From NCBI GenBank assembly GCA_020344375.1, contig CP070823.1:1613706-1626927 (forward strand): 13,222 bases of DNA, read 5' to 3'. Source of the stretch: Gemmatimonadota bacterium (lineage in GTDB: Bacteria; Gemmatimonadota; Gemmatimonadetes; Palauibacterales; KS3-K002). Of the stretch, positions 868-12,420 are shown piece by piece. A program made the position numbers and the translations under genes. The notes beneath the pieces are model-generated. The model was not told the origin of the DNA. It ran no database searches and saw nothing but the letters and a program-made list of their open reading frames with translations. Each line of letters begins with the position of its first letter. The first letter of the stretch is position 1.

Positions 868-1242
868 TTGGTATTCTGGATCGACCATAAGAGCGGCGTC
901 CCTTTCTACCGGCAGATCATCGAGCAGGTCAAGTTCGCCATCGGCCGGGGTGATCTGAAGGCGGGGGACCGCCTACCGACGGTCCGGCAGCTTGCCGTGG
1001 ACCTTTCCATCAATCCCAACACGGTGATCCGCGCCTACCGGGAGCTGGAGATCGAGGGTGTGCTCGACACGCAGCAGGGGTCGGGGACGTTTGTGGGCGA
1101 GCGTCGTCCCGAGATCGACGCGCTGGAGCGGCAGCGGATGCTGGACCAGATCCTGACCGAACTGCTTGCCCGTGCCTCGGGGTACGGGTTCACCCTCGAT
1201 GAAGTGCTCAAGGGGTTGCGTCAGCGAAAGGAGGAGTCGTGA
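868..1242 (+). CDS. GntR-family transcriptional regulator, short YtrA-like subfamily: winged HTH plus a short C-terminal helical dimerisation region, 124 aa.
   Basis: N-terminus 'WIDHKSGVPFYRQIIEQVKFAIGRGDLKAGDRLPTVRQLAVDLSINPNTVIRAYRELEIEGVLDTQQGSGTFV' matches the GntR HTH signature (P-x-Y-x-QI, G-x-L-x-x-GD-x-LPS/T-x-R-x-LA, NPNTV-x-x-AY-x-EL-E-x-EG, G-x-GTFV) and aligns closely with B. subtilis YtrA. Start is TTG 868, since an in-frame TAG at 847-849 excludes a longer N-terminus. SD GAAGGAG at 851-857. The stop overlaps the next gene (ATGA). Confidence 0.85.
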   Translation: MVFWIDHKSGVPFYRQIIEQVKFAIGRGDLKAGDRLPTVRQLAVDLSINPNTVIRAYRELEIEGVLDTQQGSGTFVGERRPEIDALERQRMLDQILTELLARASGYGFTLDEVLKGLRQRKEES

Positions 1243-2381
1243 TGAACGGAGAGTCGAGAGCCGCCGGTGGCAGGCGGCACCATATATCACTCGAGAGATT
1301 CGCCACCACCATGCGGGCCGATTTCCGCTTCGCGCCGCTCAACGCACTGCTGCTGGTGGCGATCTTGGTGGCGGGGCTCGTGGCTCACCTGAACGTCCAT
1401 CCGTTCAGCGTGCTGGCCGTCGTCCTCGCGCTGGGCTCGGCTCTGGGCCTGGTCGCTATCCTGCGCGTGTTCCAGGTGTGGGAGGCCGTCGTCGTCTTCG
1501 GCACCGCCGACTGTCTGCTCGTCTTCCTCGAGCTGCGACCCGACAGCGAGATCCTGCTGGCGGCGATCATCGTGGGGCTGGTCGTCGCGCCGGCGATCCA
1601 GATCGCCTACCAGTGGGAGCGGGCCGTGCTGCTGCGGTTCGGGAAGTTCCGCGGGCTGCGGAAGTCGGGTCTGTTCGTGCTGGTGCCGGTGATCGATAAG
1701 GTGGCTCAGTTCGTCGACCAGCGGGTGCGGGTCACGGACTTCAGGGCGGAGACGACGCTCACCGCCGACACGGTCCCGGTCAACGTCGACGCCATCGCGT
1801 TCTGGATGGTCTGGGACGCGCAGAAGGCGGTGCTCGAGGTCGAGCGCTTCGATGAGGCGGTGATCCTGTCGGCGCAGACGGCGTTGCGGAACGCGATCGG
1901 GAAGGACGCCCTGGCGGTGCTGCTATCCGAGCGTGATCGCTTGGGTCAGGAGATCCAGAAGGTGCTGGACGAGAAGACGAGCGGCTGGGGGATCACGACC
2001 CAGGCGGTAGAGATCCGCGACATCATCATCCCCAAGGGGCTCGAGGACGCGATGTCGCGCCAGGCCCAGGCGGAACGTGAGCGCCAGAGCCGCATCATCC
2101 TCGGCACCGCCGAGACCGAGATCGCGGAGAAGTTCGCCCGCGCGTCCGAGCATTACCGCGATAACCCCGTCGCCCTCCACCTGCGGGCCATGAACATGGT
2201 GTTCGAGGGACTGCGGCAGAAGGGCTCGATGATCATCGTCCCGTCCACCGCGGTCGAGACCATGGGCCTGGGAGCGCTGGGCGGGTTGACCGCGTTCGGC
2301 CAACAAGCGTCGCCGGAGACGCCGCAGGACCGCGCCGGACCCGAGGCGAGCGGCACGGCCTCCGAGGATACGGCGCGCTGA
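1242..2381 (+). CDS. SPFH/band-7 (stomatin-like) membrane protein with an unusual ~130 aa polytopic N-terminal extension; 379 aa from ATG 1242. GTG 1239 is an alternative start one codon upstream.
   Basis: The core 'YQWERAVLLRFGKFRGLRKSGLFVLVPVIDKVAQFVDQRVRVTDF...' matches the stomatin/SPFH domain. The N-terminal region has three hydrophobic helices, and a coiled, charged Ala/Gln/Glu-rich tail follows. Strong SD AAGGAGG at 1228-1234 lies 7 nt before ATG 1242. It is translationally coupled to the GntR gene (TGA 1240-1242 overlaps the ATG). Confidence 0.85.
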   Translation: MNGESRAAGGRRHHISLERFATTMRADFRFAPLNALLLVAILVAGLVAHLNVHPFSVLAVVLALGSALGLVAILRVFQVWEAVVVFGTADCLLVFLELRPDSEILLAAIIVGLVVAPAIQIAYQWERAVLLRFGKFRGLRKSGLFVLVPVIDKVAQFVDQRVRVTDFRAETTLTADTVPVNVDAIAFWMVWDAQKAVLEVERFDEAVILSAQTALRNAIGKDALAVLLSERDRLGQEIQKVLDEKTSGWGITTQAVEIRDIIIPKGLEDAMSRQAQAERERQSRIILGTAETEIAEKFARASEHYRDNPVALHLRAMNMVFEGLRQKGSMIIVPSTAVETMGLGALGGLTAFGQQASPETPQDRAGPEASGTASEDTAR

Positions 2382-2434
2382 GCCGGCCGGCGGCGGCGGA
2401 TCACCCGCACCAGGCACCTGCGCTCGGGGGGATC

Positions 2435-2596
2435 ATGAAGGCGCTCATCCTGCCCGGTCTCATCCTCGTGCTGAGGGTCACCGTGGCCTTCGTGCTCAGG
2501 CCTCTGTTGCCCGGCTCTGTGAGGTCCGTCTTTGCGCTGGTCCGGGTGCTCCGCCTCGATATTGCGGGTGTTTCCCTGCTCGATCTTCTGATGTAG
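2435..2596 (+). CDS. Possible small hydrophobic peptide, 53 aa: MKALILPGLILVLRVTVAFVLRPLLPGSVRSVFALVRVLRLDIAGVSLLDLLM. Too short for the supplied ORF track.
   Basis: ATG at 2435 is preceded by the G-rich 'cggggggatc', and the frame stays open to TAG 2594-2596. One or two predicted TM helices. It lies in an otherwise ORF-poor 1 kb stretch. Hydrophobic ORFs can arise by chance in GC-rich DNA, hence low confidence. Confidence 0.2.
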   Translation: MKALILPGLILVLRVTVAFVLRPLLPGSVRSVFALVRVLRLDIAGVSLLDLLM

Positions 2597-2759
2597 TGGG
2601 CGATTGTGCCGTGCACCGCCGGGCCAGCCGGAACGAATAAAGAGGCCGCTGGTGGGTATTCCAGTGTAGAGAACACAGCAAGGTCAAGAACCCGCGGGGA
2701 TACCAGTGCGATCGGGCGAAAGCAGGCACGGAGTCGTTGACGTTCTCAGGTGGGGGCGC

Positions 2760-3020
2760 ATGGAGCAACTGGCCAGGGGGTATTTCATGCTAGGAGTGCG
2801 GAGGCTGTACTTGCCGCGTTGGGTTCCCTGGTGCGCCCAGTTGATCCTCCTCCCGCTCTGGCTGTGGCTGACCTACGGTGTCTTCCTTGGCGAGCGGGGC
2901 CGGGCGGACCTCGGGATCGGCAACTGGATCGTGGTGAGCCTCGTGCTCGCCGTGGTCTCGTTCTATCTGTTCTTGCTGGGTTACCGGAAACTGCCCGCAG
3001 GCCTCGACGAAGGGTGCTGA
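2760..3020 (+). CDS. Small membrane protein of unknown function, 86 aa with two predicted TM helices. The track ORF begins at ATG 2706; I prefer ATG 2760.
   Basis: Translation MEQLARGYFMLGVRRLYLPRWVPWCAQLILLPLWLWLTYGVFLGERGRADLGIGNWIVVSLVLAVVSFYLFLLGYRKLPAGLDEGC. Two long hydrophobic segments flank a charged loop. ATG 2760 is preceded by 'aggtggggg' at SD distance. No recognisable family. Confidence 0.4.
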   Translation: MEQLARGYFMLGVRRLYLPRWVPWCAQLILLPLWLWLTYGVFLGERGRADLGIGNWIVVSLVLAVVSFYLFLLGYRKLPAGLDEGC

Positions 3021-3307
3021 CTCGCCATAACAAGCTCCTGTGGAGCGGCGCCTCCCGCGACCTGCAGCACCCCGCCTGTGACCTTCCGGACATCATTGGC
3101 TGCATCGCCGTATGATCCCGCAGCTTGCGGGAACCGGCGAGGAACCTCTCGATAGCCCTTGAGGGAAGTGAAGATGTGGCCTACGTAGCAACGGCCTACG
3201 GCAAGCATGGTCGGCTGGGCACCAACGTCGGCTGCGGCGCTGTTCCGGACGGCTGAGCCTTGCGGGGCGCACGCCCAAGAGCTACATTGCGAACAACAAC
3301 AGAGATC

Positions 3308-3346
3308 CCGCCACTTTCGAGCTCCGGCTCGGTGGCGGTTTTTTGT
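3308..3346 (+). terminator. Rho-independent terminator on the + strand: compound hairpin ccgccac-ttt-cgagc-tccg-gctcg-gtggcgg, followed by TTTTTTGTT.
   Basis: Read directly: outer 7-bp stem ccgccac/gtggcgg (3308-3314 / 3332-3338), inner 5-bp stem cgagc/gctcg with a 4-nt loop, then a T6 run at 3339-3344. No A-run lies upstream, so it is unidirectional for +. It lies 288 nt after the nearest upstream stop (3020) and 82 nt before the KaiC-like gene. Confidence 0.55.
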
Positions 3347-3427
3347 TGGGTTGCCGTTGTCCGCTGACTTCCCCCCCTCGGCCCCCAACCGTCGGCGTCT
3401 ACTCGACGCTGATACGGGTTCGCCATC

Positions 3428-4897
3428 TTGTTACAGAATACAAGCTCTTTCGGCATCGGGGTTCTCGACGAACGTCTGAGCGGTCCCGTCTCCGGTGGCC
3501 TGCACGTGGTCATCGGCGGCCCGGGCACCGGTAAGACGGTCGTCGCGCTCCAGTTCCTGTACGAAGGCATCCGGCGGGGCGGGCGAGTGGCGATGCTGAC
3601 GCAGGCGCGGCCCGGAGACGTGGTCGACCTGGCGGCCTCCATCGGCATTGATATGACGCCCCACCTGCGCTCCGGTCGCTGGGTGCTGCTAGGCTATCAG
3701 TCGGGGTTCCGCGAGCGCTACCGCCGTAGCATCGAGCCCGGCGAGCTGTTCCAGGAGCTGGAGGAGTTCGTCACAGCCGAGGCCGTGCCCGATCGGCTCG
3801 TCATCGATACCTGCAGCCCGCTGGTGGAGTCCCGCGAGTCGGGGAACGGGGCGGAGCATCTGATTGACCTGCTGAGCGGCGTGAGCAGCACCGTGCTGCT
3901 CACCTTCGCGGCCGAGCACCCCGGCGCGCTGGACAGCGGCTTCGATCTTATCTCGCAGCGCGCGGCGCTCGTGCTCCATCTGATACTGAGCAGCGAGGGG
4001 CGCCGCGAGATCCTCGTGCGCAAGACCCCGGGGCCCGTTGAGTCGACGGGCCCCATCACCTTCGAGATCCGCGACGGGCTGGGGATCGTGCCGGCGCAGG
4101 CGATCCAGGGGAAGCGGCGCAGCGACCTGGCGCCGGAGGTGCGGCGCCGCGTGCTGTTCGTTGACGTGCCGGCCGATCTGCCGGCGGAGCTGCGCATCTG
4201 GCTGCAGGAGTCGTTCGAGCTGGTCTACACCGCCGATCCCGTGGATGCCTTCCCCGAGCTGGCACGTCGCGACTTCGGTCTGGTGGCCATCCACATCGAC
4301 CGGCGTAGCGTGGACCGCGGGCTGCACGTGATGTATCAGCTCCGCCGCGCCGCTAGCCGGCCGCCCATCCTGGTCATGTCGCCGGTCGATGTGCGGGCCA
4401 GTGACCGGGCCCGCGCGCTACGCGCCGGTGCGGACGACTTCATCTCCGGCGGCCTCGATCCAGAGGAGCTGGCGTCGCGCATCGAGGCGTTGCTGCGGCG
4501 CGGTCGCACCGATGTCGCCGATGGGGAGGAGACCCTTGAGGCGCCGAAGCCAGAGCGGCCCGAGGGACCCGACGAGCCGGCGGACGTGCATGAGATCATC
4601 CGCGCGCGACTCACGTCGCCGGGATCGCCGATCTTCTCGCTGATCTTGCTGCGGGCGGGCAACGGCAGCCGACTGGAGGAGCTGGCCGAGCACGTCGCCC
4701 GGCAGATGCGGCATGATGGTGGCGACCGCATGAACGTGAGAGAGGAACGCGTGGAGGTCTACTTGCACGGCGCGATGCACAAGCACGCCGAAAGCTTCCT
4801 CAAGCGCGTGCGCACGGATCGCTTCGCGCGGGTGGGCGCCGTGGTTTACACGTCACCCACCGACCGTGACGAGCTGCTCAAGATCATCGACCAGTAG
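3428..4897 (+). CDS. Three-domain regulatory protein, 489 aa. It has an N-terminal KaiC/RecA-like P-loop domain (~1-230) in which the catalytic Glu-Glu pair is substituted. A degenerate CheY-like receiver domain follows (~238-360). The C-terminal ~110 aa domain is unrecognised.
   Basis: 'SSFGIGVLDERLSGPVSGGLHVVIGGPGTGKTVVALQFLYEG' matches the KaiC/RadA N-terminal motif with Walker A GGPGTGKT. The Walker B-like 'RLVIDTCSPL' corresponds to KaiC 'LFILDASPD'. The segment 'VAMLTQARPGD' aligns with KaiC-CI 'VFVTFEETPQD', so E-E becomes Q-A. The receiver region is 'RRVLFVDVPADLP ... LVAIHIDRRS ... PILVMSPVD ... GADDFISGGLDPEEL'. It has the acidic pocket residue, the candidate phospho-Asp in 'IHID' and the Ser of beta4, but lacks the conserved Lys of beta5 (K to G). 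Start is TTG 3428, since an in-frame TGA at 3410-3412 blocks any upstream extension; there is no obvious SD. The stop is 1 nt before the next start. Confidence 0.85.
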   Translation: MLQNTSSFGIGVLDERLSGPVSGGLHVVIGGPGTGKTVVALQFLYEGIRRGGRVAMLTQARPGDVVDLAASIGIDMTPHLRSGRWVLLGYQSGFRERYRRSIEPGELFQELEEFVTAEAVPDRLVIDTCSPLVESRESGNGAEHLIDLLSGVSSTVLLTFAAEHPGALDSGFDLISQRAALVLHLILSSEGRREILVRKTPGPVESTGPITFEIRDGLGIVPAQAIQGKRRSDLAPEVRRRVLFVDVPADLPAELRIWLQESFELVYTADPVDAFPELARRDFGLVAIHIDRRSVDRGLHVMYQLRRAASRPPILVMSPVDVRASDRARALRAGADDFISGGLDPEELASRIEALLRRGRTDVADGEETLEAPKPERPEGPDEPADVHEIIRARLTSPGSPIFSLILLRAGNGSRLEELAEHVARQMRHDGGDRMNVREERVEVYLHGAMHKHAESFLKRVRTDRFARVGAVVYTSPTDRDELLKIIDQ

Positions 4898-4898
4898 C

Positions 4899-7064
4899 AT
4901 GGCTGAAGTACGCTGGCCCTACTGGGGACGTTTCACTGCGCTCGCCGCTGTCTCGCTGAGCCTGCTCCTCTTCTTCGTCTTCGGGTTTCTTCCCCAGCGA
5001 TTCCTGCTCGAGCTCGACTTCAGCGAGAGCGGGTTCGCCTATCCGGTCATCCGTTCGCCCCTGCCAACGCCGCCGATCCCACCGCCCGCGCCGGTGCAAC
5101 GGCCCGTGGCGCGCGGCCCGGCGGAACGCTTCTGGGCGGAGTACCTGCCGCTGGTTCAGGCCGGCGCTGATGAGGCGGCGCTGGGGCTCTTGCGCGCCTA
5201 CCTGGCTCGTCAACCGGAGGACATGGGGGCCCAGCTCGAGTACGGGCGTGCGCTCTGGCGGTTGGGTCGGCTAGATGCCGCGATCGGCGAGTATCGCCGC
5301 GCCCTCGCCCGCGCGGGGGACTCTGAGCTCAAGAGAGAGCTGGCGCGGCTCTACGTCACTGCCGGTCGCTGGGCTGAGGCCCTGGCCACCTACAAAGCCC
5401 TCGCGAGCGCGGCGCCGGATGATCTTGAGCTGCTGCGCGAGTACGCGCAGACGGCGACCTGGGGCGCGCGCTACGAACTGGCGGTTCAACTCTATGCGCG
5501 ACTCGTGGAACTCGACCCGGATGACGCGTCGCTGCGGCTCGAGTGGGCGCGCGTCCTCTACTGGTCGGATCAGCCAGAGCTCGCCGCGGAGGTCCTGGAT
5601 GGGTTGCCGGCCGGTCATGCCGGACCTGGTTTCGACTCGCTGCGGGCGGCGATCGTTGCGGCGCTGCCGCCACCGGATACGGCGACTCTGAGCCTGCTGG
5701 AGCGCGCCCGCGGCCTGGCGCTGGCGGGCGACGTAGCGTCGGCGCTGGCGATCTACCGGCTGCTAATGAGCGAGGGGCTGGCGGCCGACTCGCTGCTGTT
5801 GGAGATGGCGGACGTCTTCGAGTACCGGGCGAACGCGCCGGACAGCGCTCTGAGCTACCTGCGCGCCTACCTGGCTCGTCACCCGGACGGCAACGAGGTG
5901 CGGCTACGCATGGCCCAGCGGCTCGCCTGGTCCGGCCGGCTCGCTGAGGCGGAGGCGGACGCCGAGGCCATCCTGCGGGTGCAGCCGGAGAATGCCGAGG
6001 CCTGGGCGCTGCTGGGAGAACTGCGTCGCTGGCGTGGTGATCGTGCGGGCGCGGTGGAGGCCTATCAACGGTCGTTGGACCTCACCCCGGACGAGGCCAC
6101 GGCCGCTGAAGGCCTCGCCGCGCTCCGCGCGCAGGTGGATGCCGAGCTTTCGGCGCAGGGCAGCATCGGGCCGGCGAGCGGGTTCGAGTACTTCGCCGAC
6201 TCGGACGAGTTCAGTCTGGCACGCTGGCGCGCCGGCTGGACGGCGGGCGTGCCACGGACGCGGGGCGGCGTAGAGGTGGCGCTGGAGCGGCTTGAGGGCT
6301 TCGAGCTGACGGGTGAGCAGGATGGATTGACCGCCGCCGCCGCCCGGGCCGTAGGTGAGCGCTGGTGGCTGGAGGGCGGCCTGCACACGACGGCCACGCT
6401 GGGCGCCTGGGTTCCGGAGTCGGGCGCGCAAGCGCAGCCGATCATCGGGCTGGTGCTGGCGGCGCCGAGCTGGGGCGGCGCGTCCTATCGCTTCGAATAC
6501 CGGCGCGAGCCCGCCTACCGGGAGACGGCGACGCTGGAGGCGGCAGCGGCCGAGCTGCGCGTCGACGTGGCCGGGCTCGAGACCTATCGCCCGATCGCGG
6601 AGCGCTGGGACCTGTCGGCTCGCGCCCGCGTGGCCCGCTTCTCCGGCGTCGGCGACGCCAACCTGCGGGGCGACGCCGCGCTGGGCGTGTTCTTCCGTCC
6701 GGACGCGAGGTGGATTCTCGGGTTCGAGAGCCGTGGGCTGACTTTCGGCGATCCGGCGCCGCGCCCCGGGCGGCGACTCTACTGGGACCCGAACTGGTCG
6801 TGGGAGAACACGCTGCTCGTCGCCTGGCGCGGGGCGCCGGCCCCGGGCTGGGAGCTGGAGGCCCGAACGACTCCGGGCCTCGCCTGGCTGGACGAGCACG
6901 AACTCGACCCGACCGTTGTCTTCGTGTTCGGGGCGACCCTGGATGCCCGTTATCGGGTGGGCGTCTGGACGCTGCAGGGACGTGCCGGCTTCAGCCAGAG
7001 CCGGGCCGGCGGCTACCGGGTCTTCCGCCTGGAGCTGGGGCTGAGCCGCGGGTTCGGAGGCTAG
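4899..7064 (+). CDS. PgaA/BcsC-like exopolysaccharide export protein, 721 aa from ATG 4899. It has a signal/anchor helix, a Pro-rich linker, multiple TPR repeats (~80-420) and a C-terminal predicted beta-barrel porin domain (~430-721). The track ORF starts 33 nt earlier at GTG 4866.
   Basis: TPR-like repeats are 34-aa helical units, e.g. 'AQLEYGRALWRLGRLDAAIGEYRRALA', 'AEAWALLGELRRWRGDRAGAVEAYQRSLDLTPDE' and the recurring 'LRAYLARQPED/LRAYLARHPDG'. The C-terminal third shows alternating hydrophobic/polar dyads with aromatic girdle residues and an aromatic-rich end ('VFRLELGLSRGFGG'), typical of outer-membrane beta-barrels. ATG 4899 lies 1 nt after the upstream TAG, i.e. coupled. The N-terminus is hydrophobic (AAVSLSLLLFFVFGFL). 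Confidence 0.8.
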   Translation: MAEVRWPYWGRFTALAAVSLSLLLFFVFGFLPQRFLLELDFSESGFAYPVIRSPLPTPPIPPPAPVQRPVARGPAERFWAEYLPLVQAGADEAALGLLRAYLARQPEDMGAQLEYGRALWRLGRLDAAIGEYRRALARAGDSELKRELARLYVTAGRWAEALATYKALASAAPDDLELLREYAQTATWGARYELAVQLYARLVELDPDDASLRLEWARVLYWSDQPELAAEVLDGLPAGHAGPGFDSLRAAIVAALPPPDTATLSLLERARGLALAGDVASALAIYRLLMSEGLAADSLLLEMADVFEYRANAPDSALSYLRAYLARHPDGNEVRLRMAQRLAWSGRLAEAEADAEAILRVQPENAEAWALLGELRRWRGDRAGAVEAYQRSLDLTPDEATAAEGLAALRAQVDAELSAQGSIGPASGFEYFADSDEFSLARWRAGWTAGVPRTRGGVEVALERLEGFELTGEQDGLTAAAARAVGERWWLEGGLHTTATLGAWVPESGAQAQPIIGLVLAAPSWGGASYRFEYRREPAYRETATLEAAAAELRVDVAGLETYRPIAERWDLSARARVARFSGVGDANLRGDAALGVFFRPDARWILGFESRGLTFGDPAPRPGRRLYWDPNWSWENTLLVAWRGAPAPGWELEARTTPGLAWLDEHELDPTVVFVFGATLDARYRVGVWTLQGRAGFSQSRAGGYRVFRLELGLSRGFGG

Positions 7065-7067
7065 GCG

Positions 7068-8381
7068 ATGCGAAGTCGGCGTCCGTTCCTGCTCGTTATA
7101 GCCGCGGCGATCATCCTTGTTATCGGCCTCCTGCTCCTGGTCTGGGCCAGCCGGGCGCCGCTCGAGGTGCAGACGTTCATCGTGCGGCTCTCGATCGTCA
7201 CGCTGGTTCTGTTCCTGGTCATCCTCATCGCCCGCTACTTCACGCTGCTCTGGTTCGGCTACCTGCACCACCTCGAGTCGGGCGCTGAGGCGCCGCGGAA
7301 CGGGGTGGAGTATCCGCCGGTCTCGCTCCTCGTGCCGGCCTATAACGAGGGGAAGGTGATCGAGTCGGCGCTGAAGAGCCTGCTGAAGCTCGACTACCCG
7401 CACTACGAGATCATCGTGGTGGATGACGGCTCGACCGACGACACGCTGGCCAATGCCTCGCGCATGGCCGGCGGGTACGGGGGTTGCCGGGTGCGGGTGA
7501 CGACGAAGAGGAACGGCGGCAAGGCGACCGCGCTGAACGCGGGGCTAGCGATGGCTGAGTATCCCATCGTGCTCTGCATGGATGCCGACTCGCGGCTCGA
7601 ACCAGGTACGCTGAAGTCGGCGGTCGTGCACTTCCGCGATCCGTCGGTAGGCGCGGTGGCGGGCAACGTGAAGGTGGTGAACCGGCGGAACCTGTGGACG
7701 CGGCTGCAGGCACTCGAGTACGTCGAGGGCCTCAACATGGCGCGACGCGCGCAAGGGTTCCTCAACGCGGTGAACATCGTACCCGGGCCGATCGGGCTGT
7801 TCCGGCGCGAGGTGCTCCTGGCAGTGGGCGGCTACGAGCGCGACACCTTCGCCGAGGACGCCGACCTCACGCTCAAGATCCTCACGGCCGGCTGGAAGAT
7901 CCGCTACGAGCCGAAGGCGGTCGCTTGGACGGAAGCGCCGGAGCGGCTGGTGGATCTCATCCAGCAGCGCTATCGCTGGACGCGCGGGATCCTGCAGGCG
8001 CTAGGCAAGCACAAGCGCACGCTCGTCTTCCCACTGCCGGATCTACCGCTCTGGCTGTCGCTGGTGCAGATGGGGTTCGAGGCGGTCGTCTGGCCGGCGA
8101 TGAACGTTTACGGCCACCTGTTCTTCGCCTACGTGGCGATCGCCTTCGGATTGGGTGAGATGCTGCTGGCGTGGTGGGTGCTGCTCACGCTGCTCGACCT
8201 CGTGGCTGCGCTGGCGAGCGTCGGTATGGAGGAGGAGCAGCTGTCGCTGGTGCCCCATGCGCTGGTCTATCGTTTCTTCTTCATTCTGTTGATCGATGTC
8301 GTGAAACTCTGCTCCACGCTGGAGGAGGGCCTCAACCTGCGGATGGGCTGGGGGAAACTGGAGAGGGTGGGACGCATATGA
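7068..8381 (+). CDS. GT2-family processive beta-glycosyltransferase (polysaccharide synthase) of the PgaC/IcaA/NodC/HasA type, 437 aa. TM helices flank a cytoplasmic catalytic domain.
   Basis: Canonical synthase motifs are present: 'VSLLVPAYNE', 'IIVVDDGSTDDT' (DDG/DXD), 'CMDADS' (DAD), 'GNVKVVNR', 'FAEDADLT' (ED) and 'QQRYRWTRG' (QxxRW). Two N-terminal and several C-terminal hydrophobic helices. Length matches PgaC/IcaA (~410-440 aa). SD GGAGG lies 7 nt upstream, and the ATG is 3 nt after the TPR gene stop. Confidence 0.9.
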   Translation: MRSRRPFLLVIAAAIILVIGLLLLVWASRAPLEVQTFIVRLSIVTLVLFLVILIARYFTLLWFGYLHHLESGAEAPRNGVEYPPVSLLVPAYNEGKVIESALKSLLKLDYPHYEIIVVDDGSTDDTLANASRMAGGYGGCRVRVTTKRNGGKATALNAGLAMAEYPIVLCMDADSRLEPGTLKSAVVHFRDPSVGAVAGNVKVVNRRNLWTRLQALEYVEGLNMARRAQGFLNAVNIVPGPIGLFRREVLLAVGGYERDTFAEDADLTLKILTAGWKIRYEPKAVAWTEAPERLVDLIQQRYRWTRGILQALGKHKRTLVFPLPDLPLWLSLVQMGFEAVVWPAMNVYGHLFFAYVAIAFGLGEMLLAWWVLLTLLDLVAALASVGMEEEQLSLVPHALVYRFFFILLIDVVKLCSTLEEGLNLRMGWGKLERVGRI

Positions 8382-8671
8382 GCATCATCCAGATCATGGT
8401 GACGATCATCATCGTGACCATCCTGGTCACGGTGATCCTCGGTGTGGCTTCCTACGGCGCCTACTGGCTGCGTCGCGGTCGGCGCCCGGCGCCGCCCGTG
8501 GCGGTGGATACGAGGCCGCGCTTCTTCTACCGCTACGTCCCTGAGGATCAGGTTGCGGCCGAAGACACAGCAGCCGGGTCGGAGGTCGCGTCCGAGTCCG
8601 GCGAACCGGAGTCAGTGCCGGAGCTGGCGGCGAGTTCCGCCGATGCCGGGAATGGCCGGTCGCGTCGCTGA
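8378..8671 (+). CDS. Small single-pass membrane protein with an acidic disordered tail, 97 aa: MSIIQIMVTIIIVTILVTVILGVASYGAYWLRRGRRPAPPVAVDTRPRFFYRYVPEDQ.... Candidate accessory subunit of the synthase (PgaD/IcaD-like by position). The track lists it within a longer 8171-8671 ORF.
   Basis: ATG 8378 overlaps the synthase stop (ATGA at 8378-8381), the classic coupling seen for pgaC-pgaD and icaA-icaD. The N-terminus is an Ile/Val-rich TM helix, followed by a basic stretch and then an Asp/Glu/Ser-rich tail. Nothing upstream of 8378 in this frame is needed. Confidence 0.55.
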   Translation: MSIIQIMVTIIIVTILVTVILGVASYGAYWLRRGRRPAPPVAVDTRPRFFYRYVPEDQVAAEDTAAGSEVASESGEPESVPELAASSADAGNGRSRR

Positions 8672-10526
8672 GCCTCCAGGCCCGCGCACGCCCTGGACGT
8701 GGGCCGGCGCGATTCTGCTGCTGGGCACGCTGGTCGCCGGGCTGGTCGGCGCGGCGATCCTGCTCTGGCGTTTCATCGACGTCGATGCGCTGCTCGAAGC
8801 GAACGATGAGATGCCGCCGTCGGTCGAGGAGGTGGTCGCCGAGATCGTGCTGCCGGAGCTCCCTGCGACGGTCGCCTGGACGGCGTACCTGTACGAGTCC
8901 CCGCGCTCCGCTCGCTTCTTTCCCAATCAGGACTACTACTCGGCCTTGCTGGTTCGCTGGGGTTCGTTGCTCGAGGTTGTCGGCGCAACGGTTGAGCGCG
9001 TCTCCGGTGCAGCGGCCATCGATTCCCTCGGCCAGGGCGAGCTGCTGGTGATGCCCGCCGCGGTCTGCTTGGACGACGAGGAGCGAGATGCTCTGCTCCG
9101 CCACGCTGAGCGGGGCGGTCACATGCTGGCCACCTGGGCGCTGGGCGCACGCGACGAGGAGTGCGACTGGCTGGGGTACGAGTTCCTGAGGGACGTGGCC
9201 GGCGCCGAGACGGCCGGGACCCTGGAAGGACGACCTCCCACCTACCTTGTAGCTCCGCACGGCAGCGTGATCGCGGCCGGCCTCCCCCCTGGCTCACGTA
9301 TCGAGCTCAGAACCGAGCCGTGGATCACGCTGCGTGCGCACGCATCGAGCGTCTTCTGGTCCGACTGGGCGCTCAACCCTCGGCCGGCGCCCGAGGGCGG
9401 TGCGGGCGGCGCGGCCCTCGCCCATAGGCTCGATTCCGGTGGTCGCTTCACCTGGTTCGGCTACCGGGTCGATGTCGCTGCCAGCGAACCCGACCAGCGT
9501 CTTGTCGATCGCCTGGCCCAGAACGCGGCGCTCTGGGCGGCCGGCCACGTAGTGGCGGACGTGGATCCCTGGCCGGGTGGCTACGAAGCCGCGATGGCCG
9601 TGACCCTGGACGTGGAGCACAGCTTCAGGAACAGCCGGCGCCTGGCACGGCGCTTCGGTGCCATCCACGTCCCCGTCACCTTCTTCGTCGTGACCCAGCT
9701 CGCCCTTGAGCATCCCGAGCTCGCCCCTGCGCTCCGTGCTGTGGGCGAGATCGGCAGCCACAGCGTCGACCATCGCCAGATTGCCGGCCGGAGCTGGAAC
9801 ACCCAGCTGGCGGGTGCGAATCAGGCGCGAGCCGACATCGCGGCCTGGTCCGGCGATCTGCCCCTGGGATTGCGACCGCCGCGTGAGTTGTTCGACTCGC
9901 TGACGCTGGAGGCGTGGCGGCGGTCCGGCGGCACCTACCTGGCCGCGTCGAACGGCGCGCGCAGTGCCGCTCCGGACATCTTCGACGTTGAGTCGGGCGC
10001 GATTGTCGTGTTGCCGCGCGTCGTGGACGATGACTACACGGTGATAGTGACGCGCGGGCAGACCCGGCCGGATTCGTTGCGCGCCGCGTTCGCGAGCGGG
10101 CTCGAGAAGATGAGGTCGCTCGGTGGTCTCGACCTTGTCACCCTGCACACCCAGCTCGTCGATTCCGATCGCCGCCTGGACGCGTTGGAGTCGGTGGTCC
10201 GTCTGGCCCAGGAGGCCGGTGATGTTTGGATCGCTGGCGCGTCCGAGATCGCTGACTGGTGGATGCAGCGCGCCGGGCTCGAGCTAGGGGTACGGGAGCG
10301 CGCCGACCGCAGCGCGATCCTCTGGGTCCACAATTCCGGAACCGAGCCCGTGACCTCGGCCTGGCTTCGCATCTATCTGCCGGGGGAGCGCGCGACCTAC
10401 GCGGCCCCGGAAATCGGCGAGGTCATCCCCGAGTCCCACTACGGTCCCTGGGGCCTGCGGGTGAGGCTGCCGATAATCGAGCCGGGTGAGTCCCTCGGGA
10501 TCCTTCTGCCTCGGCGCGCCGGCTGA
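8643..10526 (+). CDS. Membrane-anchored two-domain protein, 627 aa from ATG 8643. It has an N-terminal TM helix, an unrecognised ~280 aa extracytoplasmic domain and a C-terminal CE4/NodB-type polysaccharide deacetylase domain of the 'DVE' motif-1 variant. It is the candidate PgaB/IcaB-equivalent. The track ORF starts at GTG 8442.
   Basis: CE4 motifs: motif 1 variant 'AVTLDVEHSF' (the T-[LV]-D-V-E-[DH] form seen in EPS-locus deacetylases, instead of TFDDG), motif 2 'GSHSVDH' (H-S-x-x-H) and motif 3 'LRPPRELF' (R-x-P-[YF]-like). The TM helix 'WAGAILLLGTLVAGLVGAAILLW' directly follows M-8643/M-8652. The first 200 nt of the track ORF overlap the upstream gene in another frame and are not needed. 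Stop is TGA 10524-10526. Confidence 0.8.
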   Translation: MPGMAGRVAEPPGPRTPWTWAGAILLLGTLVAGLVGAAILLWRFIDVDALLEANDEMPPSVEEVVAEIVLPELPATVAWTAYLYESPRSARFFPNQDYYSALLVRWGSLLEVVGATVERVSGAAAIDSLGQGELLVMPAAVCLDDEERDALLRHAERGGHMLATWALGARDEECDWLGYEFLRDVAGAETAGTLEGRPPTYLVAPHGSVIAAGLPPGSRIELRTEPWITLRAHASSVFWSDWALNPRPAPEGGAGGAALAHRLDSGGRFTWFGYRVDVAASEPDQRLVDRLAQNAALWAAGHVVADVDPWPGGYEAAMAVTLDVEHSFRNSRRLARRFGAIHVPVTFFVVTQLALEHPELAPALRAVGEIGSHSVDHRQIAGRSWNTQLAGANQARADIAAWSGDLPLGLRPPRELFDSLTLEAWRRSGGTYLAASNGARSAAPDIFDVESGAIVVLPRVVDDDYTVIVTRGQTRPDSLRAAFASGLEKMRSLGGLDLVTLHTQLVDSDRRLDALESVVRLAQEAGDVWIAGASEIADWWMQRAGLELGVRERADRSAILWVHNSGTEPVTSAWLRIYLPGERATYAAPEIGEVIPESHYGPWGLRVRLPIIEPGESLGILLPRRAG

Positions 10527-10693: not shown

Positions 10694-10963
10694 GTGAAAT
10701 TCGACGAAGACCCGAGAATAAGAGTTAGCCGGAAGATCCTCGCGCTTGCCTGGCTCTTCTTCAGCCTCTATCTGGCCGCCATCATGGGCCTGTCCTTCAA
10801 CGTGGGCACAGAACCTTACCTCTGGGGACTGCCACGCTGGGTGGCGATCGGCAACATCATCGTTCCTGTCGTCTTTGTACTCCTGCTGATCTTCGTCGCC
10901 GAGAGGTTCATACCCGACGTGCCCATGACAGAGGACACGGGGGACACAGAGGAAGAGCGATGA
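10694..10963 (+). CDS. Small 2-TM membrane protein, 89 aa, of the kind found upstream of SSS-family transporters (DUF485/YjcH-like or DUF997/YhdT-like). Probable transporter accessory subunit.
   Basis: GTG start, with strong SD AAAGGAGG at 10679-10686. Two hydrophobic helices (LALAWLFFSLYLAAIMGL; VAIGNIIVPVVFVLLLIFVA) and an acidic C-tail. The stop overlaps the start of the downstream symporter (ATGA at 10960-10963), the arrangement typical of yjcH-actP and yhdT-panF pairs. Confidence 0.7.
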   Translation: MKFDEDPRIRVSRKILALAWLFFSLYLAAIMGLSFNVGTEPYLWGLPRWVAIGNIIVPVVFVLLLIFVAERFIPDVPMTEDTGDTEEER

Positions 10964-12420
10964 ACTGGGCAATCGTCTCTTTTCTCGCTTATACAGGAAT
11001 ACTGATCGCTATCGGAGTCTGGTCCTACCGGATTGTCGAGAAGGTCCCGATCACCAAATACGAGAATGAATTCTACGCGGCGGGTAGAGGCCTGGGCGGC
11101 ATCGTGGTTGCGCTGATCATAGCTGGTGGGTTGGCCAGTGCGGGGACCTTCATCGCTGGACCGGGCATGACCTATGCCTACGGATATTCCTGGGTCCTGA
11201 TCAACAACTTCCAGATCTTCATGAACCTGCTGCTCCTGGCTCCGATCGGCATCATTGTCGGGATCGTGGCGCGCAGGGTGAATGCGGTCACCTACCTGGA
11301 CATCTTCAGGGCTCGCTACCAGAGCAGGGCGATCATCGTGATCCTGACGCTCTTCGTGACCGTGTTCTTGTTGCCTTACATGGCCACTCAGTTCGTGGGG
11401 GCCGCCAGAGTCATCGCTCGGATGACTGGGATGGGTTACCTGGCTTCCCTGGCTCTCGGCTCACTGGTGGTCCTGGTCTACTGTGTTCTGGGTGGCATGC
11501 GAGGTACATCGCTTGCGACTCTGATTCAGGGCATCGTGATCACGCTTGGATGCATCGTGCTGTTCGTCGGAACCGTCGTGTACGCCGGCGGATTCCAGCG
11601 GTCGACCGAGATCCTGGCTGCCCAGGACATCAACTTCCTCTCACCGAGCATGGGTGGTGCTTTCCCGCCCATGTTCGCCTTCTCGCTCGCCTGCCTGACA
11701 GGCTATTTCATCGTCGGCATGCCGCACGCGATGTTAGGGGCGCTGACCTACAAGAACACGAGAGCGCTCAAGCGAGGCATCTGGATGGGCGCGATTCTGG
11801 TGCTTCTCTGGACACTGCTCTTGTGCATGGCCGGGGTCATCGGACGCTCGCTGGTGCCTGACCTCGCTGTGCCGGATGAGATCGCTCCCTGGCTGGCCAT
11901 GCACGTGGTACCGGAGGCGCTGGGCGGCATCGTCTTGGCGGGCATCGTGGCCGGCATCCAGACCACAGTGGCGGCCATGGCGATCATCATCACCTCCAGC
12001 ATCGCCAGTAACCTCTTGAGAGAGCTCAAGCCGGATGTTTCGGCCGAAAGAGTAAAATTCGCCTCCAGGGTCACCATGGGAGCCTGCCTGGCCATAGCCA
12101 TAGGCTTCGCTCTGCTGCAGCCTAGGCTGATCCAGTGGATCATCTTCTTTTCGATAGGCGGACTGGTCACCGCCACCTTTGGGCCGATACTCCTGGGGCT
12201 GTTCTGGAAGCGTGGGAATCAGTGGGGCGCCATAGCCTCGATATGCTGGGGGATGGTCATCTACGGGCTGGGAAACACGGTTGTGCCCCAGATGAGTCTC
12301 TGGGGCACGCATCCCTCCTTCGTTGCCGTGATCAGCTCGGTGATCGTCTACGTTCTGGTCAGCTCGGCGACGCCTCCCCCATCAGAAGAGATAGCCCGGA
12401 CCTTTTGGGGAAAGCGGTGA
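10960..12420 (+). CDS. Sodium:solute symporter (SSS) family transporter, PutP/PanF/ActP-like, 486 aa with ~13 TM segments.
   Basis: Polytopic membrane protein with SSS hallmarks: an N-terminal 'FLAYTGILIAIGVWS' helix, then 'FYAAGRGLGGIVVALIIAGGLASAGTFIAGPGMTYAYGYSW' (the GR-x-LG / G-x-x-xG core of SSS TM1-2), and a Gly-rich TM set throughout. Translationally coupled to the small 2-TM gene upstream. Confidence 0.9.
   Translation: MNWAIVSFLAYTGILIAIGVWSYRIVEKVPITKYENEFYAAGRGLGGIVVALIIAGGLASAGTFIAGPGMTYAYGYSWVLINNFQIFMNLLLLAPIGIIVGIVARRVNAVTYLDIFRARYQSRAIIVILTLFVTVFLLPYMATQFVGAARVIARMTGMGYLASLALGSLVVLVYCVLGGMRGTSLATLIQGIVITLGCIVLFVGTVVYAGGFQRSTEILAAQDINFLSPSMGGAFPPMFAFSLACLTGYFIVGMPHAMLGALTYKNTRALKRGIWMGAILVLLWTLLLCMAGVIGRSLVPDLAVPDEIAPWLAMHVVPEALGGIVLAGIVAGIQTTVAAMAIIITSSIASNLLRELKPDVSAERVKFASRVTMGACLAIAIGFALLQPRLIQWIIFFSIGGLVTATFGPILLGLFWKRGNQWGAIASICWGMVIYGLGNTVVPQMSLWGTHPSFVAVISSVIVYVLVSSATPPPSEEIARTFWGKR

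Follow-up and report, generated by a model that had tools for sequence, protein, structure and literature searches.

The cellulose-secretion regulator BcsE has, to our knowledge, been described to date solely for cellulose systems of the Escherichia coli type, and its N-terminal NTPase domain has been treated as a dead relic. BcsE – our reference being the proteins of E. coli and Salmonella (Pfam PF10995, the GIL domain; PDB 6ybb, 6ybu, 9fnn, 9fp0 and 9fo7) – is a known sensor of cyclic diguanosine monophosphate (c-di-GMP) in which a RecA/KaiC-like NTPase domain, a phosphorylation-incompetent receiver and a GGDEF domain devoid of cyclase motifs follow one another. Two c-di-GMP contacts, I-sites I and II, have been validated (PMC7439463, PMC7840130); the Walker A motif of the N-terminal domain is degenerate, and this domain is predicted to be unable to bind ATP (PMC7439463). 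BcsE N-terminal domains pair as a head-to-head dimer, and recruitment of BcsE is effected by the single-pass peptide BcsF, a β-strand of whose cytosolic tail joins the BcsE N-terminal sheet (PMC11470070). Here we are concerned with a gene for a protein of the same plan from a Gemmatimonadota bacterium: it occupies positions 3428–4897 of a 13,222-nucleotide (nt) stretch of contig CP070823.1 (assembly GCA_020344375.1), the whole of which we refer to as the window. Residue numbers given below are those of the encoded regulator, which is 489 amino acids (aa) long; nt positions are those of the window, and the features described all lie on its plus strand.

Our data point to the regulator as a cytosolic BcsE-type accessory component of a synthase-dependent exopolysaccharide machine, one that would bind c-di-GMP on its receiver–GGDEF tandem and ATP, barely hydrolysed, on its KaiC-like domain; this is the account that we favour, with a confidence somewhat above even. 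The open reading frame (ORF) begins with TTG, its translation is as given in an earlier reading made from the letters alone (below, the sequence-only reading), and a homologue of 95% identity is annotated at equal length. The product comprises a KaiC-like P-loop domain (residues ~7–225; 3446–4102), a pseudo-receiver (residues 240–360; 4145–4507) and a degenerate GGDEF domain (residues 385–489; 4580–4894). In an AlphaFold2 model of the full-length protein (mean predicted local distance difference test score, pLDDT, 82.6) the C-terminus falls directly after the GGDEF fold. The N-terminal domain lies above the curated threshold of the Pfam KaiC profile (PF06745) and has a RecA-like fold. The sequence-only reading had considered such a fold an unusual input for an exopolysaccharide operon; given the three-domain plan that view has to be abandoned, for the regulator is of the BcsE type, a known class of input to such operons.

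The relationship to BcsE is apparent from both structure and sequence. A Foldseek search of the PDB with the full-length model returned BcsE chains at the top (9fp0_E, 9fnn_U and 9fo7_E; E ~5e-17 over ~520 columns) with KaiC lower, and the solved structure closest to the GGDEF domain is again that of BcsE. Comparison of the family profile by hhalign with E. coli BcsE or with an alignment of enterobacterial BcsE gave E-values of 7.6e-4 and 6.1e-4, and the profile of a broader superfamily alignment of 85 sequences – the window protein plus 84 representatives that are 20–34% identical to it – gave 8.7e-5 against BcsE, with a probability of 60%. The segments that are paired include dlRAsDRArALRaGAD with slRAtDerlLlgcGAn of BcsE, lVlLRPxnG with vmVaLRPvpG (LRPxxG against L396RPxPG), and GDrxsVxxxRVeVyL with GDivtIgdnRLvLFL. 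Pfam CBP_BcsE (PF10995) gives weak matches to four of 64 family members and three of the 85 superfamily members (best E 3.9e-5), while GGDEF_2, GGDEF and PelD_GGDEF are matched by 17, 10 and 5 relatives, respectively. These comparisons show the C-terminal tandem to be homologous to the GIL region of BcsE. The N-terminal domain is a different matter: its hhalign comparison with the BcsE N-terminal domain was not significant (local E 0.37; the global value is meaningless), and in sequence and fold KaiC and FlaH resemble it far more closely than the N-terminal domain of BcsE does. Homology between the two N-terminal modules is thus argued from co-linearity and fold class only.

A central issue is what has been conserved within the C-terminal tandem. 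Residues 240–360 score 29.3 bits against the Pfam receiver profile (PF00072), under the cut-off of 30.2, and alignment of PhoB and CheY to the family profile places H289 at the phospho-acceptor position, G341 at that of the conserved Lys and S318 at that of the Thr; only one member of the receiver acidic pair is kept. By these residues the domain is a pseudo-receiver, predicted to be phosphorylation-incompetent. It bears an RxxD motif, R323-A-S-D326 (4394–4405), which hhalign aligns with I-site II of BcsE (R306ATD); R323 and D326 are both invariant in the family, and R323 is conserved in at least 90% of the superfamily alignment. In the C-terminal domain the GGDEF motif is absent, REERV standing at the corresponding hairpin, and the Gly-Asp of R428-H-D-G-G432-D433 (4709–4726) is aligned by hhalign with G417-D418 of BcsE, that is, with I-site I (R415TGD). 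D433 is the sole invariant column of the superfamily alignment; R428 also reaches at least 90%, a level that K36 of the P-loop does not attain. Across the superfamily, then, the putative I-site equivalents are the core and the P-loop is optional.

The P-loop of the window protein is nonetheless in good order. Conservation was assessed in a core clade of 59 close homologues with pairwise identities of 47–95%; a word-index search had returned 69 homologues, full-length or partial, and those with a named source are all metagenome-assembled genomes (MAGs) of Gemmatimonadota. Walker A, GGPGTGKT (residues 30–37; 3515–3538), fits GxxxxGK[ST] and is intact, as the sequence-only reading had it: G30, G31, G33, G35 and K36 are 100% conserved, and T37 is present in 91% and is otherwise Ser. 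The same reading had also called the Walker B strand intact by pairing LVIDTCSPL with KaiC LFILDASPD. The aspartate stands, since D127 of this strand pairs with D145 of KaiC RVSID145, and in a 64-sequence alignment R123 and D127 of RLVID (3794–3808) are invariant; the pairing itself does not, for HMMER sets that KaiC segment opposite WVLLGYQSG.

At the positions of the KaiC catalytic glutamates the picture changes. Q59-A60-R61 (3602–3610) occupies the place of E77-E78-(S/T) in HMMER alignments to KaiC: with either the single sequence or the family profile, the segment RVAMLTQARPGD falls opposite GVFVTFEESPDD of KaiC-CI, so that Q59 corresponds to E77 and A60 to E78, and alignments to KaiC-CI chains set LT-QARP opposite (V)TFEESP. 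Alignment to KaiC-CII is shifted by one residue and brings A60 and R61 opposite the Glu pair; because residues 59–61 are Q-A-R, no alignment register places a carboxylate there. The regulator domain consequently lacks the catalytic glutamates that KaiC carries at the end of strand 2 (E77/E78; E318/E319), which bears out the replacement by Gln-Ala that had been read from the letters. A survey of homologues, which that reading had proposed, found the Q-A pair in 54 of the 59 core sequences (column conservation 93% for Q59, 93% for A60 and 95% for R61), and the positions are non-acidic across the clade.

Other residues of the domain are held just as firmly. D127, R198, K199 and E163 stand at 100% within this clade, set against a mean of 75% for the N-terminal domain as a whole. 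K199, which together with R198 lies at 4019–4024, stands opposite the trans-acting K224 of KaiC; the position of KaiC R226 is Pro in the regulator and Leu, Val or Pro across the family, and R198 is invariant before K199. At the level of sequence this pattern supports strong purifying selection on the P-loop and the Walker B Asp, and by the same token the Q-A state is, as its conservation would have it, a selected feature of the core clade. An Arg-rich segment, YQxGFRERYRR (residues 90–100; 3695–3727), stands where KaiC has its DASPDPEGQ loop after strand 3 and is without KaiC counterpart; G93, R97, R99 and R100 are 100% conserved in the core clade. Weak matches to MEDS (PF14417), which we take to be a KaiC/RecA-like sensory domain without a P-loop, occur in 38 of the 64 family members.

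The likely consequence of the Q-A state may be judged from two proteins. In KaiC, E77Q/E78Q costs the CI domain its ATPase activity (PMC5007536), just as the sequence-only reading stated. In ArlH of Pyrococcus furiosus (PfArlH) the catalytic position is naturally a Gln; the ATPase of this protein is unmeasurable, yet it autophosphorylates slowly (bioRxiv 10.1101/2021.03.19.436134). ArlH proteins in general bind ATP and display no ATPase activity in standard assays; SaArlH retains the Glu, and its E57A/Q mutants lose both activity and function. That an N-terminal domain of the sequence described binds nucleotide and hydrolyses little or none of it is therefore plausible, but the further step taken by the sequence-only reading – that the domain is a switch and not an enzyme – does not follow from the motif alone, because PfArlH with its natural Gln still autophosphorylates.

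The wider superfamily places the core clade in context. When 1.84 billion representatives were searched exhaustively with the profile, 198 clusters emerged at E ≤1e-30 (~200, at 50% identity), many of them 480–540 aa in length and matching profile positions 5–488, and hence sharing the three-domain plan. Of 96 other tripartite representatives, 57 have an intact Walker A, and in the remaining 39 the motif is degenerate (for example SPPVPART, GAPGPAKL, GGEVDTRH). Within the 57, one or both of positions 59–60 are still Asp or Glu in 36 (THDDP, TQEDP, SSEEP), and only 7 of the 57 have a carboxylate at the first catalytic position; the core clade combines an intact P-loop with no carboxylate. Decay of Walker A in sister lineages indicates that the motif erodes where it is not needed, and, to the extent that motifs reveal it, the superfamily is a natural series of NTPase decay. 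Other superfamily representatives keep EE, ED or DD at the catalytic positions. P0068 (locus L007), P0201 and P0202 have lost Walker A (SPPVPART, APPAPPRT) and kept the RxxD and GD motifs, and P0068 also keeps the two neighbours that follow the regulator gene in the cassette described below, namely those for the tetratricopeptide repeat (TPR) protein and the family-2 glycosyltransferase (GT2). A pattern-based scan of GTDB representatives, which under-samples divergent relatives, recovered nine full-length members, eight from Gemmatimonadota and one from an unclassified uncultured bacterium; its remaining hits were unrelated KaiC-like or REC proteins.

The company kept by the regulator gene is that of an exopolysaccharide cassette. 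The ATG of the first of four further genes (4899–7064) lies 1 nt past the regulator stop codon (4895–4897) and opens a 721-aa TPR protein whose N-terminus bears a hydrophobic anchor, for the membrane or as a signal, and whose C-terminal ~280 aa are β-rich; a TPR neighbour of this kind occurs in every homologous locus examined. Alternating β-like sequence runs through this C-terminal part, which ends in LELGLSRGFGG. The arrangement suggests a TPR-plus-porin export scaffold similar to PgaA or BcsC, with a putative porin. The second gene (7068–8381) encodes a processive GT2 of the PgaC/IcaA/NodC kind (PF13641, E 1.3e-38); against TIGR03937 (PgaC_IcaA) it reaches 214 bits, under the equivalog cut-off of 422, and is thus related to PgaC and IcaA without being their equivalog. 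The third (8378–8671), whose ORF overlaps both the GT2 stop and the start of the gene that follows, encodes a 97-aa single-pass membrane protein, present at this point of the cassette in all 6 of the loci compared. It keeps a highly conserved transmembrane helix, a juxtamembrane YWLRRGRRP and a cytosolic PRFFYRY, beyond which its tail varies and in several members is acidic; by analogy it may anchor the regulator, as BcsF does BcsE, or partner the synthase in the manner of PgaD. The fourth (8643–10526, its start inferred from homologue calls of 624–627 aa) encodes a membrane-anchored polysaccharide deacetylase of carbohydrate esterase family 4 (CE4; PF01522, E 2.6e-10) in a PgaB-like role. The order regulator–TPR–GT2–small ORF–CE4, with frames abutting or overlapping, is found in seven loci, down to 31% identity; it stands beside homologues of 95%, 70%, 64% and 60% identity and beside relatives of 31–34%. 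An operon that pairs a CE4 de-N-acetylase with a TPR exporter is a feature of pgaABCD-type systems, and the product is probably a partly de-N-acetylated polymer of the N-acetylglucosamine (GlcNAc) type.

The regulator therefore resembles BcsE in the order of its domains, in the RxxD on the receiver that corresponds to I-site II, in the conserved G-D of I-site I, and in sharing its locus with the genes of a synthase-dependent exopolysaccharide system, among them one for a small single-pass membrane protein. Walker A and the Walker B Asp, both destroyed in BcsE, survive intact here under strict conservation; the I-site I Arg is displaced (RxxxGD); a PgaC-like GT2, accompanied by a CE4 deacetylase, takes the place of BcsA/BcsB; and the protein belongs to Gemmatimonadota, whereas BcsE has been characterised in enterobacteria. 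From KaiC CI the regulator differs in being single-domain, without the CI–CII duplication, and in lacking both catalytic Glu and the R226 equivalent; it also lacks a kaiA/kaiB context and is fused to the receiver–GGDEF tandem. Membership of the circadian KaiC family was considered and rejected (one KaiC-like domain; 35.9 bits against a cut-off of 408 for NF006799). ArlH/FlaH, in contrast, is a stand-alone archaeal protein of the archaellum motor, with one position changed and autophosphorylation demonstrated; membership of this family was likewise rejected, the score being 32.8 bits against a cut-off of 215 for NF052589 and the regulator being bacterial, multidomain and part of an exopolysaccharide operon. 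PelD, the c-di-GMP receptor of the Pseudomonas Pel system, is membrane-anchored, contains a GAF domain and has neither KaiC-like nor REC-like domains.

How might such a regulator work? By analogy with BcsE, the receiver–GGDEF tandem would bind c-di-GMP, the ligand probably sitting between R323xxD326 and R428/G432-D433 as an intercalated dimer, and would hold the activating signal or pass it on to the synthase complex. For its part, the N-terminal domain would bind ATP-Mg by way of the Walker A Lys and Thr and the Walker B Asp, and, with Q59 and A60 in place of the water-activating glutamates, its turnover of ATP is expected to be extremely slow or nil. Binding is suggested by a P-loop that is constrained here and visibly decays elsewhere in the superfamily; loss of hydrolysis is suggested by the want of CI ATPase in KaiC E77Q/E78Q and by ArlH, which binds ATP without detectable ATPase. 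Were hydrolysis indeed absent or extremely slow, the nucleotide would stabilise an assembly state and not power work: it might serve dimerisation or oligomerisation, and docking at the membrane, as a structural cofactor or as a slow switch, and the regulator may dock, as BcsE does on BcsF, onto the 97-aa membrane protein by way of the conserved cytosolic tail of the latter. Because the best-conserved residues of the superfamily are the I-site equivalents and not those of the P-loop, the main sensor is probably not the KaiC-like domain, which would instead be an accessory module for assembly or switching. This domain may represent a stage partway towards the NTPase domain of E. coli BcsE, which is wholly dead.

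Several observations weigh against this account. I-site I is not a canonical RxxD or RxGD: the residue at −3 is Asp and the invariant R428 lies at −5, RTGD being read in only a few members. The hhalign probabilities are modest (25–60%), and the window protein itself has no match to PF10995 at E up to 1. The regulator is without the ~40-residue BcsQ-binding tail of BcsE, and the locus is without bcsRQ, bcsF and bcsG. E163, which lies in the loop after strand 5, and E134, which is well conserved, could act as substitute carboxylates, and PfArlH Q63A autophosphorylates at the wild-type level. At least three tripartite lineages have no Walker A, and P0068, the sole one of these whose locus was examined, has the same neighbours; loss of the motif in such lineages indicates that the core function can do without nucleotide binding. 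Finally, every member comes from uncultured MAGs or metagenomes.

Alternative explanations turn largely on what the KaiC-like domain does with its P-loop. A bolder form of the account that we favour would see the family as a living intermediate from which BcsE arose: a dual-nucleotide coincidence sensor, in which unhydrolysed ATP drives dimerisation and docking on a BcsF-like 97-aa peptide, c-di-GMP is clamped between receiver and GGDEF domains, and both gate a synthase of the GlcNAc type. We offer this tentatively, and with more doubt than belief. It is also conceivable that the domain is a very slow enzyme, an autokinase or timer comparable to ArlH or KaiC-CII, whose γ-phosphate is moved to a protein Ser/Thr or slowly hydrolysed and whose phosphorylation state sets oligomerisation and interaction with the synthase. 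PfArlH, which binds ATP and autophosphorylates with either its natural Gln or Ala in that place, provides a precedent, and R198, K199, E163 and YQxGFRERYRR are conserved more than plain binding requires; but here both Glu positions are non-acidic, SaArlH keeps its Glu and is inactive as E57A/Q, the KaiC R226 equivalent is Pro, Leu or Val, a conserved phospho-acceptor Ser/Thr was not identified, and sister lineages do without the P-loop. On balance a slow enzyme strikes us as unlikely.

At the opposite extreme, the N-terminal domain might bind no nucleotide at all and be a purely structural pseudo-NTPase like that of E. coli BcsE, its motifs kept for folding or for an interface. The BcsE domain, predicted not to bind ATP and a module for dimerisation and BcsF docking, is just such a case; the 39 tripartite relatives of 96 with a degenerate Walker A, the occurrence of P0068 in the same operon context and the weak MEDS matches all fit. 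A working phosphate-loop signature, with G30, G31, G33, G35, K36 and D127 at 100% and T37 at 91%, in a motif that decays where it is unconstrained, makes this quite improbable. The conventional possibility, that of a two-component response regulator or transcription factor whose phosphorylated receiver steers a KaiC-like output on exopolysaccharide transcription, draws on the labels given by JGI to homologues (OmpR or NarL family) and on weak NCBIfam matches to OmpR-, PhoB- and CtrA-type receivers. With His for the acceptor Asp at 289, Gly for the Lys at 341, a sub-threshold Pfam receiver match, no DNA-binding domain by Pfam or NCBIfam, a C-terminal GGDEF-like fold nearest to BcsE, and no histidine kinase called among the neighbours of the loci examined, we give it scarcely any credence; as a canonical response regulator, the protein was rejected on the absence of acceptor Asp, conserved Lys and DNA-binding domain together.

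Some features of the surrounding DNA deserve mention. A hairpin resembling an intrinsic terminator (3297–3348; ΔG −31.6 kcal/mol, z −6.3), preceded by an A-run and followed by a U-run, lies ~80 nt 5′ of the regulator TTG and leaves ~80 nt for an operon promoter and leader; a bulge caused it to be overlooked by a simple terminator scan. Scans of the window with Rfam (gathering thresholds) and ARAGORN gave zero RNA features, and hence no riboswitch or other RNA explanation for the DNA upstream of the regulator. Further upstream, an ORF at 868–1242, a positional match to a GntR-family gene of the 95%-identical relative L001 (GCA_039586495.1), overlaps by 4 nt the gene for a 380-aa SPFH/Band-7 protein (1239–2381), and the pair is conserved in L001. 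The block 872–3154 is 86.5% identical to L001, compared with 94% downstream, and at 3154–3225 of the window L001 carries ~2.1 kb extra (its positions 7706–9798) coding for a 658-aa Big_1/Laminin_G_3 protein without counterpart in the window; the identity step and the extra block mark a mosaic junction just upstream of the regulator. Beyond the deacetylase, 10694–12420 holds a small DUF997-like ORF and a sodium/solute symporter of the PanF kind, which at 300 bits falls just short of the TIGR02119 cut-off. Both occur in the closest relative but are missing from the more distant loci, and so probably lie outside the cassette.

Pseudo-NTPases and glutamate-less KaiC-like ATP binders are already known – ArlH is one, and euryarchaeal ArlH has the natural Gln – and our findings do not constitute a new class of mechanism. 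A BcsE-like family outside both cellulose systems and Proteobacteria appears to be undescribed, as do its coupling to a PgaC-like/CE4 cassette, its retention of a functional-looking P-loop, and a superfamily with graded NTPase decay; a search of the literature at hand turned up none of these. What emerges is the same three-domain regulator on a different polymer machine in another phylum. Its P-loop states – intact with acidic catalytic positions, intact without them as in the core clade, and destroyed – suggest an evolutionary route for BcsE, and the series allows one to ask what nucleotide binding adds once hydrolysis has been lost. Gemmatimonadota have few cultured members, and the family supplies candidate c-di-GMP receptors for exopolysaccharide synthesis in this phylum. 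If the family is indeed the intermediate and coincidence sensor tentatively envisaged above, then BcsE-type vestibule regulation would be ancient and general in synthase-dependent systems, and not a speciality of enterobacterial cellulose.

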